A stretch of 64,000 bases of DNA from NCBI GenBank assembly GCA_038227875.1, contig JBBRPR010000019.1, positions 1 to 64,000 of the forward strand, written 5' to 3'. Source of the stretch: Planctomycetota bacterium (GTDB taxonomy: Bacteria; Planctomycetota; SZUA-567; H5-PLA8). The notes beneath the pieces were generated by a model that was not told the origin of the DNA, searched no databases, and saw only the letters and a list, made by a program, of their open reading frames with translations. Positions 38,776-45,445 of this stretch are shown one piece after another (within the stretch, counting starts at the first letter, position 1; each line of letters begins with the position of its first letter). The position numbers and the translations under genes were made by a program.

Positions 38776-40767
38776 TTGGTTGAGGAAATGTCGTTTCCTC
38801 GAGCGTCCATCCGTTGCACGGGCTCGCTGCAGATCAGCGGACGTGTGCGGTACGCTCACGCCAAATTAGTGTCGCGCTTTATGCTCTGTGGAGTTCTGGC
38901 CTGTGCGGCCGGGGCGCTCCAGGCGGGCGACGATTCAGGTCCGGTTCTACGCCGCGTAGAATCGATCACCAGCAGCGAAGATATCCAAGCCGGCACGCAA
39001 GCGCCCGGCGCGCTGATCACGCTTGAAGTCAATGAGCGTCCCCTCAAGCAGGTGTTGGACTATCTCTCCACCGTCAGCGGAAAGAACATCCGCGTCGTCA
39101 AAGAGAAGGACAACAAGCTGCTGATCACGTTCAAGCTTGAGAACGTGACCTACCGCGCGATTCTCGATTTCATTGCCCGCAAATATGGCATGGTCATCGA
39201 TGACACGCAGTTGCGCACCGGCAACATCATTTTCGTGGATACGCCTGAAAAGGTCTCCATGGTGTTCCAGCGCGCCGACATCCGCGACGTCATCAACACC
39301 ATCGCGATCCAGTCGAACGCCAACATCGTGATCGGACCGGAAGTAACCGGCGAAGTCTCGATGCGCCTGGAGAACGTGCCTTGGAACGACGCGCTGAACA
39401 TCGTCGTCAAGACGTTGGACTTCGTGGCGGTGCCGGAAGTCAACAACACCATCCGCATCACCAGCCCGGCGAAAATCGCACAGCAGCTGGACATCCGCAT
39501 CTTCCGACTGGCGTACATTTCGCCGGAAGGTTCGAAGTACACCGCGGTGCTCAACAGCGAATTTGCCAAGCGTGAAGAATCCAAGGATACCGCCGCCGCC
39601 GGCCAGTCGTTGATCGACGTGCTGACGAAGGTCAAGGGATCCCAGGGTACGATCTCGTTTGAAAAACGCTCCAACGCCCTGGTTGTCCGCGACACGTCCA
39701 CCAGCCTCGACCAGATGCAGTTGATCATCGACAAGCTGGACGTTCCGCCCAAGCAGGTGCACGTGGCCGTCAAGCTCGTCGAACTCTCCGATTCCGATTC
39801 GGAAGCGATCGGCGTGGACTGGGGCAACGGACTGCAGCTCCAGGTCAATCCGATCAGCGGCTTCTCGACTGCCTTCCCATTTGACGTCTCGAACGGGCTG
39901 AGCAACTCGCTGCTGGGCAAGTTGGCGGTCGGTCTTGCGCCCACCCGCGTCCCCGCTGGAAACACGCACGTCGGATCTGACATCTTCGGATTGGGATCCT
40001 CAGTCAACCGCGGCGGCGATGGACTGCCCACCTCCGTCTCCCCCTTGGGTCTGGGTTCGGTGAGCACGGCCGGCACCAATGCTCTCCTGCAGTTGATTCG
40101 CACCAAGACCAGCGGCCGGGTCATCCAGGCACCGCAGATCATTGCGCTGGATAACGAAGAAGCCACGATTCAGGTCGGCGAACTGGTCCGCTACGCGGAA
40201 ACGTTCGTGGCGAACACTGAAGGTGGTGGAAACGTTTCCGGTTTCCGCGAAGCTTCCGGCTCGCCCATCAAGCTGGGAACGCAGCTCCTGATCATCCCGC
40301 ACGTGACCGGACCTGAAAACAATGTGCTGATGACGGTGGTGCCGAAGGTTGAAAGCTTCAGCACTTCCCGCAGCGGACTCAACGGCGCTCCGGCCGGATT
40401 CCAGCGCTTCAACGGCGCGGGCATCTCGTTGGACTTGCCGCAAACCGCCCAGCGCATCGTGGTGACCAAGATGATGCTGCGCAACGGCGAAACGGGCGTG
40501 ATCGGCGGACTGCGCGCCGAAACCGACGCGACGTCGGAAACGAAAGTTCCGATCTTCGGCGAAATTCCGGTGCTCGGCCGGTTGTTCAAGCACCGCGGCG
40601 CCTCGTCGTCCAGCACCAACCTGCTGGTCTTCGTGACACCGACGATTGTTGACTTCCACGAAAGTGATACGTTCAAGAAGGAACTCGACCGCCTGAAGCA
40701 GGACTTCTCCCGGCCTTTCACGCCGCTGGGCGAAGAAGAAGAAACCACGGCCTCGGCGGCCAAGTAA
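38776..40767 (+). CDS. pilQ: PilQ-like secretin
   Basis: STN/N0 domains (ADIRDVINTIA...VSMRLENVPWNDAL), N3 (SNALVVRDT...LDVPPKQV), secretin core (APQIIALDNEEATIQVG; GETGVIGGL; KVPIFGEIPVLGRLF; LLVFVTPTIV); start uncertain. Confidence 0.92.
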   Translation: MVEEMSFPRASIRCTGSLQISGRVRYAHAKLVSRFMLCGVLACAAGALQAGDDSGPVLRRVESITSSEDIQAGTQAPGALITLEVNERPLKQVLDYLSTVSGKNIRVVKEKDNKLLITFKLENVTYRAILDFIARKYGMVIDDTQLRTGNIIFVDTPEKVSMVFQRADIRDVINTIAIQSNANIVIGPEVTGEVSMRLENVPWNDALNIVVKTLDFVAVPEVNNTIRITSPAKIAQQLDIRIFRLAYISPEGSKYTAVLNSEFAKREESKDTAAAGQSLIDVLTKVKGSQGTISFEKRSNALVVRDTSTSLDQMQLIIDKLDVPPKQVHVAVKLVELSDSDSEAIGVDWGNGLQLQVNPISGFSTAFPFDVSNGLSNSLLGKLAVGLAPTRVPAGNTHVGSDIFGLGSSVNRGGDGLPTSVSPLGLGSVSTAGTNALLQLIRTKTSGRVIQAPQIIALDNEEATIQVGELVRYAETFVANTEGGGNVSGFREASGSPIKLGTQLLIIPHVTGPENNVLMTVVPKVESFSTSRSGLNGAPAGFQRFNGAGISLDLPQTAQRIVVTKMMLRNGETGVIGGLRAETDATSETKVPIFGEIPVLGRLFKHRGASSSSTNLLVFVTPTIVDFHESDTFKKELDRLKQDFSRPFTPLGEEEETTASAAK

Positions 40768-40780
40768 GGATCAACATCTG

Positions 40781-40817
40781 AAACGGGCGGCGGAAAATTT
40801 CCGCCGCCCGTTTTTTT
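40781..40817 (+). terminator. Rho-independent terminator after pilQ
   Basis: aaacgggcggcggaaa-a-tttccgccgcccg-TTTTTTT. Confidence 0.88.
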
Positions 40818-41138
40818 ATTCCCGCTCTGCCTTGGAACATTGCCACAAAAGTGTGATGGAAACGGAGTAGGTTTAAGGCTAGACTCGATTTTGGCTTTGG
40901 GAGGGTATTCAGCCTTCCGCCGACGATTCCGGTGGCCAACGAATTTTCAGTAGAACTGCCGGCTCGGGGCGGTCCCAGGCCGGATTCAGGTGAACTCAAG
41001 GATCTGTCGCGCGGCATCTCCTCCTATCGCACCCGAAATGTAAGCGGGCTGATTCCCCGGTCGTGAGCATGAAGCTCGCGTGGAAGGTGAGTAGCTTGCA
41101 AGTGTGCGGATGTGAAGGCCCCAGTAGTGTTCGCTGCG

Positions 41139-41870
41139 ATGATTCAGCAAAAGGTAGAAATCCGTTTCGAGAAGGGTGAGGCGATCCGCTTCATCTCGCA
41201 CCATGACCTCATGCGCGCGTTGATGCGTGCAGTGCGCCGGGCGAAGTTGCCGGTGCGGCTGACCGAGGGATTCAACCCCCGGCCGCGCATCGTCTTTCCC
41301 GTGGCGCTCGAGGCTGGCGTCGCTTCCCTCGACGAAGCAGCGGAAATCGAATTGACTCAATGTCTAGCCACACAGGAAGTTTTCAGTCGTCTTTCCTCCG
41401 TCTTACCCCCGGGCATCCAGCTGAAGGCAGTGAAGGATCTTCCGCCGCGTCGGGCGGGACAGACTCCGATTCGGATTCAGTATCTTCTTCATCTGGTGGA
41501 AGCGGGGATTCAACTCCAAACGCTCCAACTGGAAAACCTGCTAAAAGCTCCAGCGCTGCCCTTCGAGCGACCAAGGGAAAAGCATCTGCAAAAAGTGGAT
41601 CTAAGGCCGGCGCTGCTCGCGCTAAGCCTAAATCCACAGGGAAATCTGCTGGTCGAAGTGAAGCCAAGCCCAAGCGGGTCAGTAAGACCGCTCGAAGTGC
41701 TAAGCCTGCTGCTGAACGTGCCGCTGGACGACGTGAAGCGAGTGCGCGTGACGAAGCTGCTCATGGAACTGCAGACGCCACCGGAACTGACGCCGGAACA
41801 GCAAACCGAACGCGAACTGCTGCTGCAGAGGGAACTCGACCGGGATCAGGAGCAGGAAGCGGAAGCGTAA
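41139..41870 (+). CDS. TIGR03936 family radical SAM-linked protein (DUF2344)
   Basis: FEKGEAIRFISHHDLMR...RRAKLPVRLTEGFNPRPRIVF...LPPGI...VDLRP...GSVRP. Confidence 0.88.
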   Translation: MIQQKVEIRFEKGEAIRFISHHDLMRALMRAVRRAKLPVRLTEGFNPRPRIVFPVALEAGVASLDEAAEIELTQCLATQEVFSRLSSVLPPGIQLKAVKDLPPRRAGQTPIRIQYLLHLVEAGIQLQTLQLENLLKAPALPFERPREKHLQKVDLRPALLALSLNPQGNLLVEVKPSPSGSVRPLEVLSLLLNVPLDDVKRVRVTKLLMELQTPPELTPEQQTERELLLQRELDRDQEQEAEA

Positions 41871-44800
41871 CAACGCACGCTGCTCCGACTCAGGAATCCG
41901 CGCCGCCTGCTCCAGCACCGGTTCAACACACGCCGCCGGCCCCAGCGTCCCATTCGACGCCTTCATTCAACGAATCGGCCGCCGATGCACAGCCGGCTCC
42001 CATGCGCCCTAAGTCCGGCGACGTCGACGAATCGGCCGCCGATGCCGCCGCCGCCGCGCGCGCAGCACAGATTGTCGCCAGCATGATCGGCGTACCTCCC
42101 GGCGCGGCCGGTCCGCAGCAATTCCGCCCCGGAAGCCAACCTCGACCGGGCCAGGGTGGACCTGGACAGGGTCAACACCGGGGCCCCGGACAGGGCCAAG
42201 GCCAGATGGATGGCGGACGGCGTAAGCGTCGGCGGCGCGGACGCGGCGGTGACCGCTTCGCTCAGCCCGGCGGTTTGCCCGGCCAGCCCGGCCAACCTCG
42301 ACAGCCCGGAGTGCCTCAGGGCAACCGGCCTCCGCACCTGCCCCGCCCTCCGCACGTTTCGCCGCCGGTTTCCGGTGCCGTTACGCCTGACACGGGCACG
42401 CAGATATCCACACCCGTCGATCCTGCCGTCGTCATTACGCCACCGGCCGCTGTGATCATGGATACACAGAACGTTCACGCCGTCGATCTGAATGCGACGT
42501 CGTCCGTCGCGCCTGTATCCGCGCCGGCGCAGACGGGTCAGCCTTCGCAACAACTTCCGCGCCATCAGCAACCGCGGCGTGATCGGGATCCGCGCGACCG
42601 TGATCGGGATCGCGATCGCGACAGTGGCCAGGTTTCATTGCCCCCCGTGAAAAAAGTGGTGTTAATGAACGCCACCGATCCCGGCGAAATCCGCGTCGCG
42701 ATTCTTGAGAACGGTGAGCTCGCAGAAATTTTCATGGAACGCAAGAGCCGCGGGCAGCAGGCGGGCAACATTTATAAGGGCCGCGTGGTCAACGTGGAAC
42801 CGTCGCTTCAGGCGGCATTCGTCGATCTGGGCACGGAACGCAACGGCTTCTTGCACGCATCGGACTGCATTCCGCCCGACGGCGGCTACGGCGACATCCT
42901 GACAAAATTCAAGCCCGGCGCGGGCCGTCAACCGTTGCCGCCGCAGGCGCAGGTCCAGCAGCCGCAGCAGCAGCACCGAGGTCCGCGCGACCGGAACGAT
43001 CGCAACGCCGCGCGCCGTGAACAGTATCAGCAGCGCCGCGATGCGCAGCTGCCGGGTGGTGTGCCGCAATCCGCGCCCACCTCTCCAGCAATTTCGTCAC
43101 TGCCCTCGGCTCCGCCTGCCGATGCAGTCGCAGCCACAGCGCCAGTTTCTGTTCCGGTCACACCCGCTCCGGACGTCGACCCGACGGTGATTCGGATTGC
43201 TCGCCCCGGCGTTCCGTTGCCTCCCGCGCCAGCTCCGGTTGCACCGGCCGCGCCAGTTGATTCAACGTCAGCCGCAACGCCGACGGACGCGCCCGCTTCC
43301 GCGCAGGACGCCGCCCCCTCAAATCCTTCCACCCAGTCGTACGACTCGGATGAAGATGAAGACGAAGACGATCTCGAAGGCGGAGAAGGTGAAGGCGACG
43401 ACGACGAGGGCGATTCTGAACAGGGTGAAGGCGGCAACGCTGCGCCCATGATCGCCGGCCAAGGCGCGCCGGGAACTGGAATCGCGACAGGTCAGCCGCA
43501 GCACTCCGGCCAGCGCCCGCCGTTTGCCGCCAACAGTCAAAATGGTGGACGCCGCCGGCGCCGACGCCGTGGTGGACGCGGACGTTCCGGACGTGGCCGC
43601 CCGCCGGGTCCCGCGCCGATGATGGCCCCAAATCATGGCAATCCGGAAGGCTCCGGAAACGCCGACGCACCGCAAGGTGGTGACGTTCATCCCGTCACGC
43701 CTCCGGTTTCGAATCCGATTGTTGAAAAGCCGCCCGAAACTACGGCGCCCGCTCCCGTCATTGTTCCAGATGCTGCGCCCGAAGCCGTGCCCGTCAGCAG
43801 CAGCAACGAACCGGTCACGAGCGCGCCTGTGGCCACCGAAAGCAATTCCCCTTCACAGCCGGCGGAAGTGCCCGCCTCGGAACCGGCCGCACCTGAAGTT
43901 GTCGACGAAGAGTCCGAAACGGAAATCGATACCGATAACGTTCCGCCTGTGTCGAATGGTACCGGCGAAAGCGAAAGCGAATCCGAGAACGGCAATGAGT
44001 GGCATGAGCATCCCGTGAGCGAGGAAGCGCCGCCGACGGAGATTATCGTCCCGGAAAGCAAGCCCGCTCAGTCTCCGCGCGAAGCCGCGCCGATTCCCGC
44101 GCCGGGACAGCCCGCGCCGGTTCAGCAGCGCCGTCCGGACGGTGGCGGACGCAGCGGTCGCGACCGTGGCGATCGTCGCTACACGATTCAGGAAATGCTC
44201 CGCGAAGGCCAGGAAGTGCTCATTCAGGTCGCCAAGGAAGGCATTGGTCAGAAGGGCCCGGCGCTCACGACGTACCTGAGCATGCCCGGCCGTTACCTGG
44301 TATTGATGCCGGCCGTGCAGCGTCTGGGCGTTTCCAAGCGCATCGAGAACGAAGAGCAGCGCCGCGCCCTCAAGGACGCGCTCAACCAGCTCAACCCGCC
44401 CGACGACATGGGCGTGATCGTGCGCACCGCCGGCACGGGACGTTCGAAGGACGAACTGCAGCGCGACATGGATTACCTCGTCCGCGTCTGGGATACGTTG
44501 AAGAAGAAGGCGAAAGTTGCCCGCGCTCCCGCACTGATCTATCAGGAAGGCGACGTGGTGACGCGCGTCTTCCGCGACGTGATCACCGACGACGTGGCCG
44601 AGATCATCATCGACGATCCGGTGGTCGCTGACCGCGCCCGCGAATTCCTGCGCGAAAACGCGCCGGGAACGGAAGGCAAGGTCAAGCTCCACGCCGACGC
44701 CGAACCGCTGTTCCACAAGCTGGGCGTCGAACAGCAGCTCCAGCGCCTGTTCAACCGCAAGGTCAATCTGCGCAGCGGCGGCTCGATCGTAATCGAGCAG

Positions 44801-45445
44801 ACCGAAGCGTTGATCGCCATCGACGTGAACACCGGCCGCTTCCGCGAAAAGCGCAGCCAGGACGACACCATCCTGGCGACGAATCTCGAAGCCGCCCGCG
44901 AAATCGCGCGTCAGTTGCGGTTGCGGGACATCGGCGGCCTGGTGATGATCGACTTCATCGACATGGAACCGCACGAACACCGGCGCCGCGTCGAACGGGA
45001 ATTGAAGGCGCATCTGCAGCGCGACAAGGCCCGCATCAACGTGCTGCCGATCAGTTCGCTGGGCGTCGTGGAAATGACGCGCCAGCGCATCCGGCACAGC
45101 CTGCGCAAGACGCTCTTCGACCGCTGCCCGCATTGTTCAGGCTCGGGCCACGTGAAATCGGCCGAATCGCTGGGGCTGGAAATGCTCCGCGAAATCAAGG
45201 GGCAGTTGCGGGACGCAACGGTGAAGCGGGTGCTGGTGAAGGTGAATCCCGCGGTTGCCTTTGACATTTTGAACCAGTTCAGGAAAGATCTGGCACGTTT
45301 GGAAGAAACTCGCGGGATCGCCATTGAAGTCCGGGGGGACGGCACTGTGCCGTTAAGCCAGATCCAGGTTTCGACCGCCAAAGAGGGCGGCGAGTGGGTG
45401 CTCAAGAAAATAAGTGAGGTTGATGACTATGTACGCAATTCTTAA
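41360..45445 (+). CDS. rne: Rne/Rng family ribonuclease with long N-terminal disordered region and disordered insertion in S1 (start uncertain; alternatives ATG 42002, GTG 42647)
   Basis: EIRVAILENG, GNIYKGRVVNVEPSLQAAFVD, GVIVRTAG, IEQTEALIAIDVNTG, QLRLRDIGGLVMIDFIDM, EMTRQR, CPHCSGSG. Confidence 0.9.
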   Translation: MSSHTGSFQSSFLRLTPGHPAEGSEGSSAASGGTDSDSDSVSSSSGGSGDSTPNAPTGKPAKSSSAALRATKGKASAKSGSKAGAARAKPKSTGKSAGRSEAKPKRVSKTARSAKPAAERAAGRREASARDEAAHGTADATGTDAGTANRTRTAAAEGTRPGSGAGSGSVTTHAAPTQESAPPAPAPVQHTPPAPASHSTPSFNESAADAQPAPMRPKSGDVDESAADAAAAARAAQIVASMIGVPPGAAGPQQFRPGSQPRPGQGGPGQGQHRGPGQGQGQMDGGRRKRRRRGRGGDRFAQPGGLPGQPGQPRQPGVPQGNRPPHLPRPPHVSPPVSGAVTPDTGTQISTPVDPAVVITPPAAVIMDTQNVHAVDLNATSSVAPVSAPAQTGQPSQQLPRHQQPRRDRDPRDRDRDRDRDSGQVSLPPVKKVVLMNATDPGEIRVAILENGELAEIFMERKSRGQQAGNIYKGRVVNVEPSLQAAFVDLGTERNGFLHASDCIPPDGGYGDILTKFKPGAGRQPLPPQAQVQQPQQQHRGPRDRNDRNAARREQYQQRRDAQLPGGVPQSAPTSPAISSLPSAPPADAVAATAPVSVPVTPAPDVDPTVIRIARPGVPLPPAPAPVAPAAPVDSTSAATPTDAPASAQDAAPSNPSTQSYDSDEDEDEDDLEGGEGEGDDDEGDSEQGEGGNAAPMIAGQGAPGTGIATGQPQHSGQRPPFAANSQNGGRRRRRRRGGRGRSGRGRPPGPAPMMAPNHGNPEGSGNADAPQGGDVHPVTPPVSNPIVEKPPETTAPAPVIVPDAAPEAVPVSSSNEPVTSAPVATESNSPSQPAEVPASEPAAPEVVDEESETEIDTDNVPPVSNGTGESESESENGNEWHEHPVSEEAPPTEIIVPESKPAQSPREAAPIPAPGQPAPVQQRRPDGGGRSGRDRGDRRYTIQEMLREGQEVLIQVAKEGIGQKGPALTTYLSMPGRYLVLMPAVQRLGVSKRIENEEQRRALKDALNQLNPPDDMGVIVRTAGTGRSKDELQRDMDYLVRVWDTLKKKAKVARAPALIYQEGDVVTRVFRDVITDDVAEIIIDDPVVADRAREFLRENAPGTEGKVKLHADAEPLFHKLGVEQQLQRLFNRKVNLRSGGSIVIEQTEALIAIDVNTGRFREKRSQDDTILATNLEAAREIARQLRLRDIGGLVMIDFIDMEPHEHRRRVERELKAHLQRDKARINVLPISSLGVVEMTRQRIRHSLRKTLFDRCPHCSGSGHVKSAESLGLEMLREIKGQLRDATVKRVLVKVNPAVAFDILNQFRKDLARLEETRGIAIEVRGDGTVPLSQIQVSTAKEGGEWVLKKISEVDDYVRNS

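Follow-up and report, generated by a model that had tools for sequence, protein, structure and literature searches.

The window, a 64,000-nt stretch of DNA from the genome of an uncultured planctomycete (G000), encodes a DUF2344 protein and an RNase E (rne) in two open reading frames that occupy some of the same nucleotides (Table 1). The rne ORF (41360..45445, + strand, 1361 aa) shares 511 nt with the DUF2344 ORF (41112..41870). Its ATG at 41360 lies 248 nt into the DUF2344 gene, the nearest rne-frame stop 5' of this ATG is a TGA at 41204, and the two frames are offset by two bases, each rne codon beginning with the third base of a DUF2344 codon. These ORF calls agree with the initial annotation, in which the rne frame had been described as open from ATG 41360, 511 nt ahead of the DUF2344 stop at 41870, and as having no in-frame start at the junction of the two genes. 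The first in-frame ATG, GTG or TTG past 41360 is indeed ATG 42002; thus, there is no start at the DUF2344 junction. The terminator-like hairpin that follows the secretin gene makes DUF2344-rne a separate transcription unit.

Table 1. Features of the DUF2344-rne locus (positions in the window)
Feature	Position	Strand	Remarks
Terminator-like hairpin, 16-pair stem and T run	40780..40814	+	3' of the upstream secretin gene
DUF2344 gene (PF10105 / TIGR03936-type), 252 aa	41112..41870	+	ORF call, Pfam, alignment, AF2
DUF2344 start and stop	GTG 41112 or conserved ATG 41139; stop TAA 41868-41870	+	MIQQKVEIRF from ATG 41139
Weakly folding AT-rich patch at the internal start	41330..41390	+	proposed translation initiation region
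Proposed RNase E start ATG	41360..41362	+	last base of Gln CAA and first two of Cys TGT (DUF2344)
Dual-coding overlap, 511 nt	41360..41870	+	DUF2344 residues 83-252; RNase E residues 1-170, predicted disordered
Acidic Ser/Gly/Asp-rich tract of extension	41426..41512	+	RNase E residues 23-51
Basic Lys/Arg/Ala-rich cluster of extension	41573..41734	+	RNase E residues 72-125
Extension part outside the overlap, Pro/Ala/Gly/Gln-rich	41871..42649	+	RNase E residues 171-430
Conserved helix motif A-D-E-x-A-A-x-R-A-x-Q-I-V	42026..42091	+	residues 221-242
Arg-rich cluster GGRRKRRRRGRGGDR	42212..42256	+	residues 285-299; conserved across five close relatives aligned
Conserved RNase E/G N-terminus and first S1 part (KKVVLMNATDPGEIRVAIL ... 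FLHASD)	42650..42895	+	
Low-complexity insertion, ~427 residues, Pro-rich	42896..44176	+	splits the S1 domain
Second Arg cluster	43544-43600	+	within the low-complexity insertion
Second S1 part, RNase_E_G catalytic domain, thioredoxin-like small domain, stop codon	44177..45445	+	

The Pfam DUF2344 match (E 4.9e-38; 131.2 bits against a cut-off of 23.8) covers residues 14-193 and extends to nucleotide 41690, well within the overlap. In an alignment of 30 loci the conservation of DUF2344 persists through the overlap, and the motifs LPPGI, VDLRP and GSVRP, which the initial annotation had read there, align with those of relatives. An AF2 model of the protein has a mean pLDDT of 77.8, with the 10-residue blocks of residues 121-220 at 81-96 and those of residues 81-110 at 81-90. 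Foldseek searches with DUF2344 recover a weak likeness to TruA/Pus1 (E ~5e-5, TM 0.25-0.30). At this locus DUF2344 neither adjoins nor is fused to a TIGR03960 radical-SAM gene: the gene upstream is the secretin, and the sole TIGR03960 match in the genome is on another contig (C1:137574-139331). Of the two frames in the overlap, that of DUF2344 is the folded and ancestral one; its greater age follows from the occurrence of the family far beyond the clade considered below, and from the outgroups that have the gene without the overlap.

The RNase E protein matches PF10150 (E 8.7e-104), PF20833 (E 1.6e-17) and, partially, PF00575 (E 1.3e-4), with the RNase_E_G catalytic domain at residues 974-1243 and the thioredoxin-like small domain at residues 1256-1337. 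The insertion in the S1 domain has a net charge of about -31 over residues 510-930. The N-terminal extension comprises about 429 residues, the first 170 of which come from the overlap. AlphaFold2 assigns it a pLDDT below 50 over residues 2-217 and predicts a sole helix at residues 221-242 (pLDDT 64-68), and residues 61-125 carry a net charge of +18. The extension is thus predicted to be disordered, with clustered Arg/Lys segments. Past the DUF2344 stop the rne frame is clearly coding, given its conserved helix motif and Arg clusters. Consequently, the public version of this protein is too short: in a look-up of six ATG-started forms of the RNase E in a public protein collection, only a 926-residue form starting at ATG 42665 was on record, which is without the whole 435-residue extension and has no overlap with DUF2344. 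A database search with extension residues 1-430 (near lengths) returned no match at E <= 0.001 among 7999 candidates, the low-complexity query making this search little informative.

Taken by itself, the open frame in G000 is ordinary. In this genome 55% of 1087 long ORFs (median 716 codons) hold an open run of at least 170 codons in the corresponding frame, and hence a single genome is weak evidence for dual coding. This fits an explanation in which RNase E is translated from a start past the DUF2344 stop, for G000 ATG 42002 or one farther downstream, and the open frame is an untranslated by-product of composition and shared ancestry, an explanation that we consider improbable on the evidence that follows. 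Also in its favor is the stop-free rne frame over the same stretch in 17 of 61 distant loci. When DUF2344 codons are shuffled synonymously, the overlap is stop-free in 1.4-2% of shuffles for G000 and in 0-3% of trials for eight of the ten loci tested from family f1. In family f5, with its third-position GC of ~0.9, chance alone is expected to leave 10-46% of shuffles without a stop. The 16 loci of f1 have rne-frame stops at 41 of 1199 codons upstream of the ATG versus 1 of 2629 downstream, a fall of about 90-fold that begins exactly at the ATG. This fall is seen in f1 only; nine outgroup loci have stops at 16 of 663 codons upstream and 38 of 1351 downstream of the same column. A start past the DUF2344 stop leaves this drop, present in the family yet not in the outgroups, unexplained. 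The stop-codon avoidance in the alternate frame for which the initial annotation had proposed a test is borne out, and the overlap signal is, by these comparisons, far beyond chance only once relatives are included.

The relatives compared are metagenome-assembled genomes only. At the alignment column of DUF2344 C84, the ATG is present in all 17 genomes of f1 and in three of the four of f5, and the length of the overlap across loci is 424-586 nt. This ATG is built from CAA (13 cases), GAA (4), ACA, GCA or AGA, followed by TGG or TGY; that is, the residue before the Trp or Cys varies and the final A of its codon is constant. Genome-wide in G000, an A precedes TGG/TGY codons in only 10.5% of cases. 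The conserved ATG is found in 14 of the 15 closest of 80 metagenome loci, 11 of these 14 being new lineages, and in 8 of 41 distant loci with Trp or Cys at the column. An A kept invariant through five different codons in every genome of the family is again left unexplained if translation begins downstream.

Alternative starts are also lacking in several relatives. In three loci (L010 of G004, L011 of G007 and L020 of G021) the conserved ATG is the only rne-frame ATG, GTG or TTG before the S1 domain. The next rne-frame start in the first two is a GTG within the conserved strand RVAV, so that in these three genomes no canonical downstream start would spare the S1 N-terminus. Likewise, in L003 of G001 there is no canonical start from the conserved ATG to residue 264, past the helix motif. 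In four other genomes (G000, G008, G009 and G015) canonical starts do occur past the DUF2344 stop and ahead of the helix motif, the one in G000 being ATG 42002, which is in-frame and just 5' of the motif. With such starts RNase E could be made in two lengths, the longer begun at ATG 41360 and the shorter at 42002 or farther downstream, and the overlapped segment would be an optional, isoform-specific extension. As G001, G004, G007 and G021 are without a second start the short form cannot be general, and we hold the use of two isoforms to be quite unlikely.

Both the downstream start and the use of two isoforms draw support from G005 (L005), which has a stop in the rne frame and manages with a new ATG, 49 nt 5' of the DUF2344 stop, showing that a shorter enzyme works. 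Similarly, G024 (L017) and L051 are without the conserved ATG and have stops in the rne frame. The loss or interruption of the overlap frame in G005, G024 and L051 indicates that the overlapped part is dispensable, and two lineages appear to have lost the feature. Stops in relatives, by which the initial annotation would have had its proposal judged, do not mark the family in general and occur only in the outgroups and in these two lineages of apparent loss. A DUF2344 gene tree of 29 rows, with the fragment L021 left out, places f1, f5, f3 and f6 in one clade (100/99) that is unresolved within. The overlap is kept in one family at least, and probably in two.

The codon choice of DUF2344 changes within the overlap. 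Its CAI there is 0.526 versus 0.672 +/- 0.031 expected from genome usage, with none of 2000 resamplings as low, and it has 20 rare codons (CTA x6, AGG x3, CGA x2, AGA x1 and others) versus 8.8 expected. At the third positions A rises to 0.26 (0.14 expected) and C falls to 0.17 (0.32 expected), and this enrichment of purines and depletion of C is confined to the overlap. The part of the gene before ATG 41360 has a normal CAI (0.621 versus 0.678 +/- 0.050), and the shift in codon usage at about 41360 noticed in the initial annotation is thereby confirmed. The coherent low-complexity reading of the rne frame, which had been offered alongside it, is also present; as evidence it carries little weight, since GC-rich genes tend to give S/G/A/K-rich sequence in this frame. 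Synonymous shuffles of DUF2344 supply a stricter comparison: in 17 of 18 clade loci no more than 1% of shuffles match the enrichment of G/A/S/D/E in the second frame, whereas none of nine outgroup loci shows it at 5%. The second-frame K/R cluster is denser than in shuffles (at most 2% reaching it) in 13 of the 18 clade loci. In G000 it has 11 K+R in 30 aa versus a shuffle mean of 6.9, a value reached by none of 500 synonymous shuffles. These comparisons support the view that synonymous choice in DUF2344 has shaped a Gly/Ala/Ser/Asp/Glu-rich second-frame peptide with a Lys/Arg cluster, which a start past the DUF2344 stop does not account for.

Two further measures side with such a downstream start. 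Firstly, the rne-frame codon score under genome usage is negative throughout the overlap (GC3 0.23-0.50) and turns positive only from about 41950. A negative score is expected under dual constraint, yet it is no positive support for it. Secondly, the reduced synonymous variation for which the initial annotation had proposed a test is not seen: there is no excess synonymous-site conservation of DUF2344 in the overlap relative to its upstream part. The same-codon fraction is 0.457 in the overlap versus 0.400 in shuffles (ratio 1.14), and 0.527 versus 0.429 upstream (ratio 1.23). Within genera, synonymous differences range over 0.28-0.56 for the overlap and 0.27-0.43 for the upstream part; the near-identical L014/L016 and two pairs that have just 15 codons upstream are not counted. 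Thus, the second-frame sequence is under weak constraint at most.

The context of the internal start is distinctive too. In G000 the GC content within +/-18 nt of ATG 41360 is 0.44 versus 0.58 for the gene, and the folding energy (MFE) of -7.2 kcal/mol places it at the 95th percentile of weakness in the gene and makes it the weakest of 13 in-frame candidates for the rne start. Across the f1 loci the GC content within the same distance is 0.33-0.49 versus 0.53-0.72 for the gene, and the 60-nt window at the ATG ranks in the 82nd-99th percentile for weakness of folding in every one of the 16 loci, compared to the 3rd-97th in outgroups. In contrast, ATG 42002, the first candidate for a downstream start in G000, lies in GC-rich sequence (0.68) with an MFE of -17.0. 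A scan of 40700-42700 for sigma-70 promoters returned no sites, and the 3' end of the 16S rRNA was not found in the assembly. In each of two metatranscriptome runs 5% of the sampled words were present, as short contig pieces that are mostly less than 90% alike and probably come from relatives. By eye, we observed a TCGAAT hexamer about 7 nt 5' of the ATG, which might serve a leaderless transcript as its -10 box; as it also encodes conserved Glu-Ile-Glu-Leu residues, this role is no more than an idea.

Conservation of the ATG and of its weakly folded surroundings would not be required by the other mechanism named in the initial annotation, a programmed frameshift from DUF2344 into the rne frame giving a fusion of the DUF2344 N-terminal part to RNase E, which we regard as very improbable: the shifted frame is open throughout the overlap as it would need, and in G014 (L012) a single ORF runs from the DUF2344 frame into S1, which may mean that a fusion is tolerated. 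However, X_XXY_YYZ heptamers are unconserved in the overlap (found at two columns, in 4 and in 3 of 18 loci), and stop avoidance starts at the ATG rather than at a later shift site. The frame change in G014, a 6-contig assembly, falls among homopolymers of five C and five G, upstream of which the second frame is open from the same ATG, a pattern consistent with a single-base indel, whether genuine or introduced in assembly.

Weighing these observations, we put at about 0.8 the probability that the planctomycete RNase E is translated from ATG 41360, inside the DUF2344 gene and in a frame shifted by two bases. The 511 nt can be read in two frames, one giving the folded C-terminal two-thirds of DUF2344 and the other 170 residues of the predicted-disordered extension, and the sequence comparisons show the ATG, the open frame and the second-frame peptide composition to be conserved. 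Of the origins suggested in the initial annotation, the one supported is therefore overprinting, in which a conserved gene came to encode a disordered extension of RNase E as well. Five comparative tests speak for it: the conserved ATG, the drop in stops, the lack of another start, the weakly folding patch and the shaping of the second-frame peptide. The extension would have arisen when the rne start shifted upstream into a frame already open by chance. Ribosomes might then load independently at the internal ATG, aided by the conserved AT-rich, weakly folded patch, on either a DUF2344-rne message or a transcript beginning inside DUF2344, perhaps leaderless. The acidic tract followed by the Lys/Arg cluster could have a role in RNA binding or assembly, by analogy with other disordered non-catalytic regions of RNase E. 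More tentatively, and with the odds rather against it, the whole might be an RNA-binding disordered arm of an essential-type RNase, which arose de novo in the shifted frame of an older folded domain and was kept as true dual coding of ~500 nt throughout the history of at least one planctomycete family. Because the rne start region lies within the DUF2344 coding sequence, the overlap may mechanically couple the synthesis of DUF2344, the synthesis of RNase E and any self-regulation through the rne 5' region. It adds a physical link between the DUF2344 and RNase E/G genes, whose pairing is widespread, whose products may act as partners and which are a single ORF in G014.

Long same-strand overlaps in bacteria are rare and usually dismissed as annotation errors, and gene callers seldom accept long overlaps. 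Our literature search found no description of a long DUF2344/RNase E overlap. If proteomics confirms it, few conserved same-strand regions of dual coding in cellular genomes would be as long, and it would be a clear case of overprinting on a folded domain giving rise to a disordered segment. A further implication would be that annotations of GC-rich genomes systematically truncate RNase E, and perhaps also other proteins whose N-termini are disordered.

Among known systems, the rnpA-rpmH pair of Thermus, in which rpmH (L34) is wholly nested in rnpA and both are translated (Feltens et al. 2003, via PMC9841429), is alike in being a same-strand, out-of-frame overlap in which the N-terminal part of an RNA-processing protein lies over a conserved neighbor gene. 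The AUGs of the Thermus pair are one base apart and share a common Shine-Dalgarno site (PMC9841429), whereas the second start in the planctomycetes is proposed from sequence comparisons and is ~250 nt inside the upstream gene; further, their overlap of 424-586 nt lies over a folded domain and encodes a predicted disordered extension. The origin proposed for the rne extension is the same as in the model of overprinting by 5'-end extension, in which the downstream gene acquires a start farther upstream within the first gene (Cock and Whitworth 2007, Sabath et al. 2008; PMC3887535, PMC2542354). Overlap surveys described in these sources discard overlaps of more than 59 bp as likely misannotations. 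Unlike the surveyed overlaps, the rne/DUF2344 overlap of ~500 nt is backed by family conservation and not by annotation, namely by a start kept via five codons, stop avoidance from that start and the shaping of synonymous sites. RNase E of Mycobacterium smegmatis likewise carries a long disordered region N-terminal to its catalytic domain, and its residues 1-329 are dispensable for survival, their deletion slowing mRNA decay (PMC12767347). The basic clusters of the planctomycete extension suggest a similar role, and the loss in G005 indicates that part of the extension is dispensable in planctomycetes too. The passages of that source on the M. smegmatis extension give no hint of an overlap with another gene. 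Finally, long embedded overlapping genes such as olg1/olg2 of Pseudomonas aeruginosa (PMC8850804) and pop of E. coli O157:H7 (PMC7103648) also involve overlaps of hundreds of nucleotides that are discarded by annotation pipelines. These, as their sources describe them, are antisense, evolutionarily young and taxonomically narrow, whereas the rne overlap is same-strand, lies in the gene of an essential-type enzyme and is conserved in at least one family, probably two.

In the G000 assembly (9.3 Mb, 59.6% GC, 176 contigs), of which the window is contig C19, a secretin gene is followed by a hairpin, DUF2344, rne and then rplU. The initial annotation had the rne frame open from an ATG inside the DUF2344 gene, and this holds: the first 170 codons of the ORF fall within DUF2344 at a two-base offset, and the next ATG, GTG or TTG in the rne frame is the ATG at 42002. 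The conserved RNase E/G N-terminus, KKVVLMNATDPGEIRVAIL, starts only at residue 431 (nt 42650), and the ORF therefore bears an extension of 429-430 residues. Of six ATG-started forms compared with the public protein collection, a single one is present there: a 926-aa protein read from ATG 42665 (MNATDP...), which omits the entire extension (435 residues on that count) together with the conserved KKVVL residues; this ATG is not a conserved start because the same codon encodes Leu in relatives.

Features of the DUF2344-rne region (window positions; genes on the forward strand)
Feature	Position (nt)	Residues	Remarks
Terminator-like hairpin	40780-40814		strong; between secretin gene and DUF2344 gene
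DUF2344 gene	41112..41870	14-193 (domain)	Pfam PF10105, E 4.9e-38
rne ORF	41360..45445		1361 codons; rear part is RNase E/G
Overlap of the two genes	41360-41870	1-170 of RNase E	511 nt
Insertion in RNase E S1 domain	42896-44176		~427 residues, low complexity
Arg cluster of the insertion	43544-43600
RNase_E_G domain		974-1243 of rne ORF	profile match
Thioredoxin-like domain		1256-1337 of rne ORF	profile match

The insertion that interrupts the S1 domain is Pro-rich, with a net charge of about -31 across residues 510-930, and is flanked by FLHASD before and RYTIQEMLREGQEVLIQV after it. For rplU, ATG 45429 (MYAILNDRG, with GAGG 9 nt upstream) is a likelier start than the mechanically listed GTG 45414, which would make the gene overlap the rne stop (45414-45445). 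The TIGR03960 radical-SAM gene, the usual fusion partner or neighbour of DUF2344, lies on another contig of G000 (G000:C1:137574-139331, locus L119; 705 bits, above the cut-off), and the DUF2344 gene of the window stands by itself beside rne.

Judged from G000 alone, the open second frame, i.e. the one offset by two bases from DUF2344 and leading into RNase E, is barely more than chance. Synonymous reshuffling of DUF2344 leaves it stop-free in 1.4% of trials when codons are shuffled within the region and in 2% under genome codon usage, and an open run of at least 170 codons in the corresponding frame is found in 55% of 1087 long ORFs of G000 (median 716 codons). The rne frame has a negative genome codon-usage score all through the overlap, with GC3 of 0.23-0.50, and a positive one from ~41950. 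The shift in DUF2344 codon usage noticed in the initial annotation is real: CAI in the overlap is 0.526 as against 0.672 +/- 0.031 (0 of 2000 resamplings as low), rare codons number 20 as against 8.8 expected, and third positions are A in 0.26 vs 0.14 and C in 0.17 vs 0.32. The 73 DUF2344 codons preceding the ATG show normal usage.

It is the relatives, rather than G000 alone, that settle the question. A DUF2344 search of 41 genomes (G000 and 40 relatives, including all 20 available genomes of the order and most of the class) recovered 30 loci, 22 of them with both DUF2344 and the S1 start, and in all 22 DUF2344 precedes rne. The unpublished genome G017 enters only the genome tallies, and none of the conclusions depends on it. 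At the alignment column of DUF2344 C84, all 17 genomes of f1, the family of the window, which span 10 genera, have a second-frame ATG, as do three of four genomes of a second family, f5, and one of nine outgroup loci. The codon supplying its A is CAA (13 times), GAA (four times), ACA, GCA or AGA, followed by TGG, TGC or TGT; the residue ahead of the Trp/Cys thus changes (Gln, Glu, Thr, Ala, Arg) and its third base is invariably A. Across the genome, 10.5% of TGG/TGY codons have an A directly ahead of them, and CAA makes up 29% of the Gln codons found before Trp/Cys. A scan of metagenome contigs yielded 80 DUF2344 loci. Among the closest 15, 14 have the ATG (CAA, GAA or ATA before TGG/TGC/TGT) and are stop-free downstream; two of them are cut off by the contig end, at 298 and 70 nt, and L043 was inspected by eye. 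Three duplicate genome loci, hence 11 are new lineages. In the remaining 65, Trp or Cys occupies the C84 column in 41, with an ATG in 8 of these. In one metagenome locus, L044 (same DNA as L013, G013 lineage), the second frame spans 3510 nt from the conserved ATG, and 1487 nt separate the DUF2344 stop from the S1 start, giving a predicted extension of ~690 residues.

The initial annotation had proposed looking for stops in the alternate frame of relatives. Counted over 16 f1 loci (fragment L021 left out and L012 shortened to 150 codons), the second frame contains 41 stops in 1199 codons ahead of the ATG and one in 2629 beyond it, as against 16 in 663 and 38 in 1351 in the nine outgroup loci; thus stop avoidance sets in with the ATG and is confined to this clade. 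Family f5 has few stops on either side (2/288 and 2/564), a consequence of its third-position GC of ~0.9, and the case for this family is built on the scarcity of A-ending codons and on the absence of alternative starts in L010, L011, L020 and L003. Among distant loci the second frame is stop-free in 17 of 61 as well, which counts against the dual-coding reading. The rne frame is open back through DUF2344 in the distant metagenome loci L074, L076, L079, L090, L104, L115, L117 and L118. Of these, L079 alone carries an ATG at the column (GCA TGG), with an ORF reaching S1, though its closest kin lack these. Such frames may be the sort of chance-open frame that gave rise to the overlap.

Ahead of S1, the rne frame of L010 (G004), L011 (G007) and L020 (G021) offers the conserved ATG and no other ATG, GTG or TTG. 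The next candidate in the first two is a GTG within the conserved strand RVAV, use of which would remove the N-terminus of the family, and in L003 (G001) no start follows the conserved ATG until residue 264, beyond a conserved helix motif. GC within 18 nt on either side of the ATG is 0.33-0.49 in f1 vs 0.53-0.72 for the genes themselves. Ranked within its gene by weakness of folding, the 60-nt window at the ATG falls in the 82nd-99th percentile in 16 of 16 f1 loci, compared with the 3rd-97th in outgroup rows. In G000, ATG 41360 is the weakest-folded (-7.2 kcal/mol) of 13 in-frame rne candidates, with ATG 42002 at -17.0.

The second-frame peptide is enriched in G/A/S/D/E to a degree reached by at most 1% of synonymous shuffles at 17 of the 18 clade loci; at the 5% level, none of the nine outgroup loci shows such enrichment. 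Lys/Arg residues cluster more densely than in shuffles (at most 2%) in 13 of 18 clade loci vs one of nine outgroup loci, and hydrophobic residues are depleted in 18 of 18 and, more weakly, in most outgroups too. In the RNase E of the window an acidic tract (residues 23-51) precedes a basic cluster (72-125), the net charge of residues 61-125 being +18. AlphaFold2, run on five aligned extensions, gave pLDDT <50 for residues 2-217, a single helix at 221-242, which is the conserved motif A-D-E-x-A-A-x-R-A-x-Q-I-V, and S1 strands from residue 431. The DUF2344 model (17 sequences) has a mean pLDDT of 77.8, with 10-residue blocks at 81-90 (residues 81-110), 61 (111-120) and 81-96 (121-220), and a weak likeness to TruA/Pus1 pseudouridine synthases.

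DUF2344 synonymous sites are no more conserved within the overlap than upstream of it, and the second-frame sequence evolves almost freely except in its start, stops and composition; a disordered segment could plausibly behave in this way, but the pattern adds no support. G005 (L005, contig C332 of a 3.1-Mb, lower-GC assembly) keeps the ATG, but its second frame has one stop and reads as more hydrophobic, and a new ATG lies 49 nt ahead of the DUF2344 stop; it looks as if the overlapped segment was lost. G024 (L017) and the metagenome locus L051 have GTG or CTG at the column and two stops each. In the DUF2344 gene tree, very long branches (2.85 and 1.84 changes per column) lead to the two inner-clade families without the overlap, f3 (L023, L024) and f6 (L022). 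Unless these placements are unreliable, DUF2344 free of the overlap seems to be evolving faster.

The initial annotation had also considered a programmed frameshift feeding DUF2344 ribosomes into the rne frame, but a scan of the overlap across loci revealed no conserved slippery heptamer. In G014 (L012; C2, ~1457408-1461091, of a 6-contig assembly) the DUF2344 frame is continuous with the S1 domain as one ORF. Relative to G006, the frame changes near the DUF2344 end, among homopolymer runs (five C, five G), and up to that point the second frame has no stop from the same conserved ATG onward; the single ORF reflects either a genuine fusion or an assembly error of one base.

The comparisons establish two frames with a conserved start, stop avoidance and a characteristic second-product composition, and the DUF2344 frame as the older; in outgroups rne starts only a few tens of bases from the DUF2344 stop. 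The conserved ATG, the stop avoidance from it and the second-frame composition favor the reading of the initial annotation as an overprinted disordered extension, and we regard the overlap as a probable overprinted same-strand overlapping gene, with odds of roughly four in five that translation of the clade's RNase E, that of G000 among them, begins at the ATG within DUF2344. The rne start would have shifted upstream into a chance-open frame, as found in many GC-rich relatives, endowing RNase E with a new disordered arm. Ribosomes would initiate at the internal ATG via the unstructured AT-rich region; the template may be the operon mRNA or a transcript beginning within DUF2344. The acidic tract followed by the basic cluster may resemble in its action the non-catalytic regions found in other RNase E proteins.

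The overlap was not found described in the literature on DUF2344, TIGR03936, the planctomycete RNase E extension or overlapping frames of RNase E. Mycobacterium smegmatis RNase E likewise has a disordered N-terminal region (1-329), which the cells survive without, although mRNA decay is slower on its deletion (PMC12767347); the basic clusters of the present extension suggest a comparable role. The proposed origin agrees with the 5'-extension model of unidirectional overlaps (PMC3887535, PMC2542354). The closest proven case is Thermus rnpA/rpmH, in which the RNase P protein gene encloses the L34 gene and the two starts are one base apart (PMC9841429); the planctomycete overlap is deduced from sequence. 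Unlike the long overlapping genes of Pseudomonas and E. coli, which are antisense and young (PMC8850804, PMC7103648), it is on the same strand and conserved in the family, and it is distinctive in its length of 424-586 nt, its placement over a folded domain, its family-wide conservation and its involvement of a central RNA-decay enzyme.
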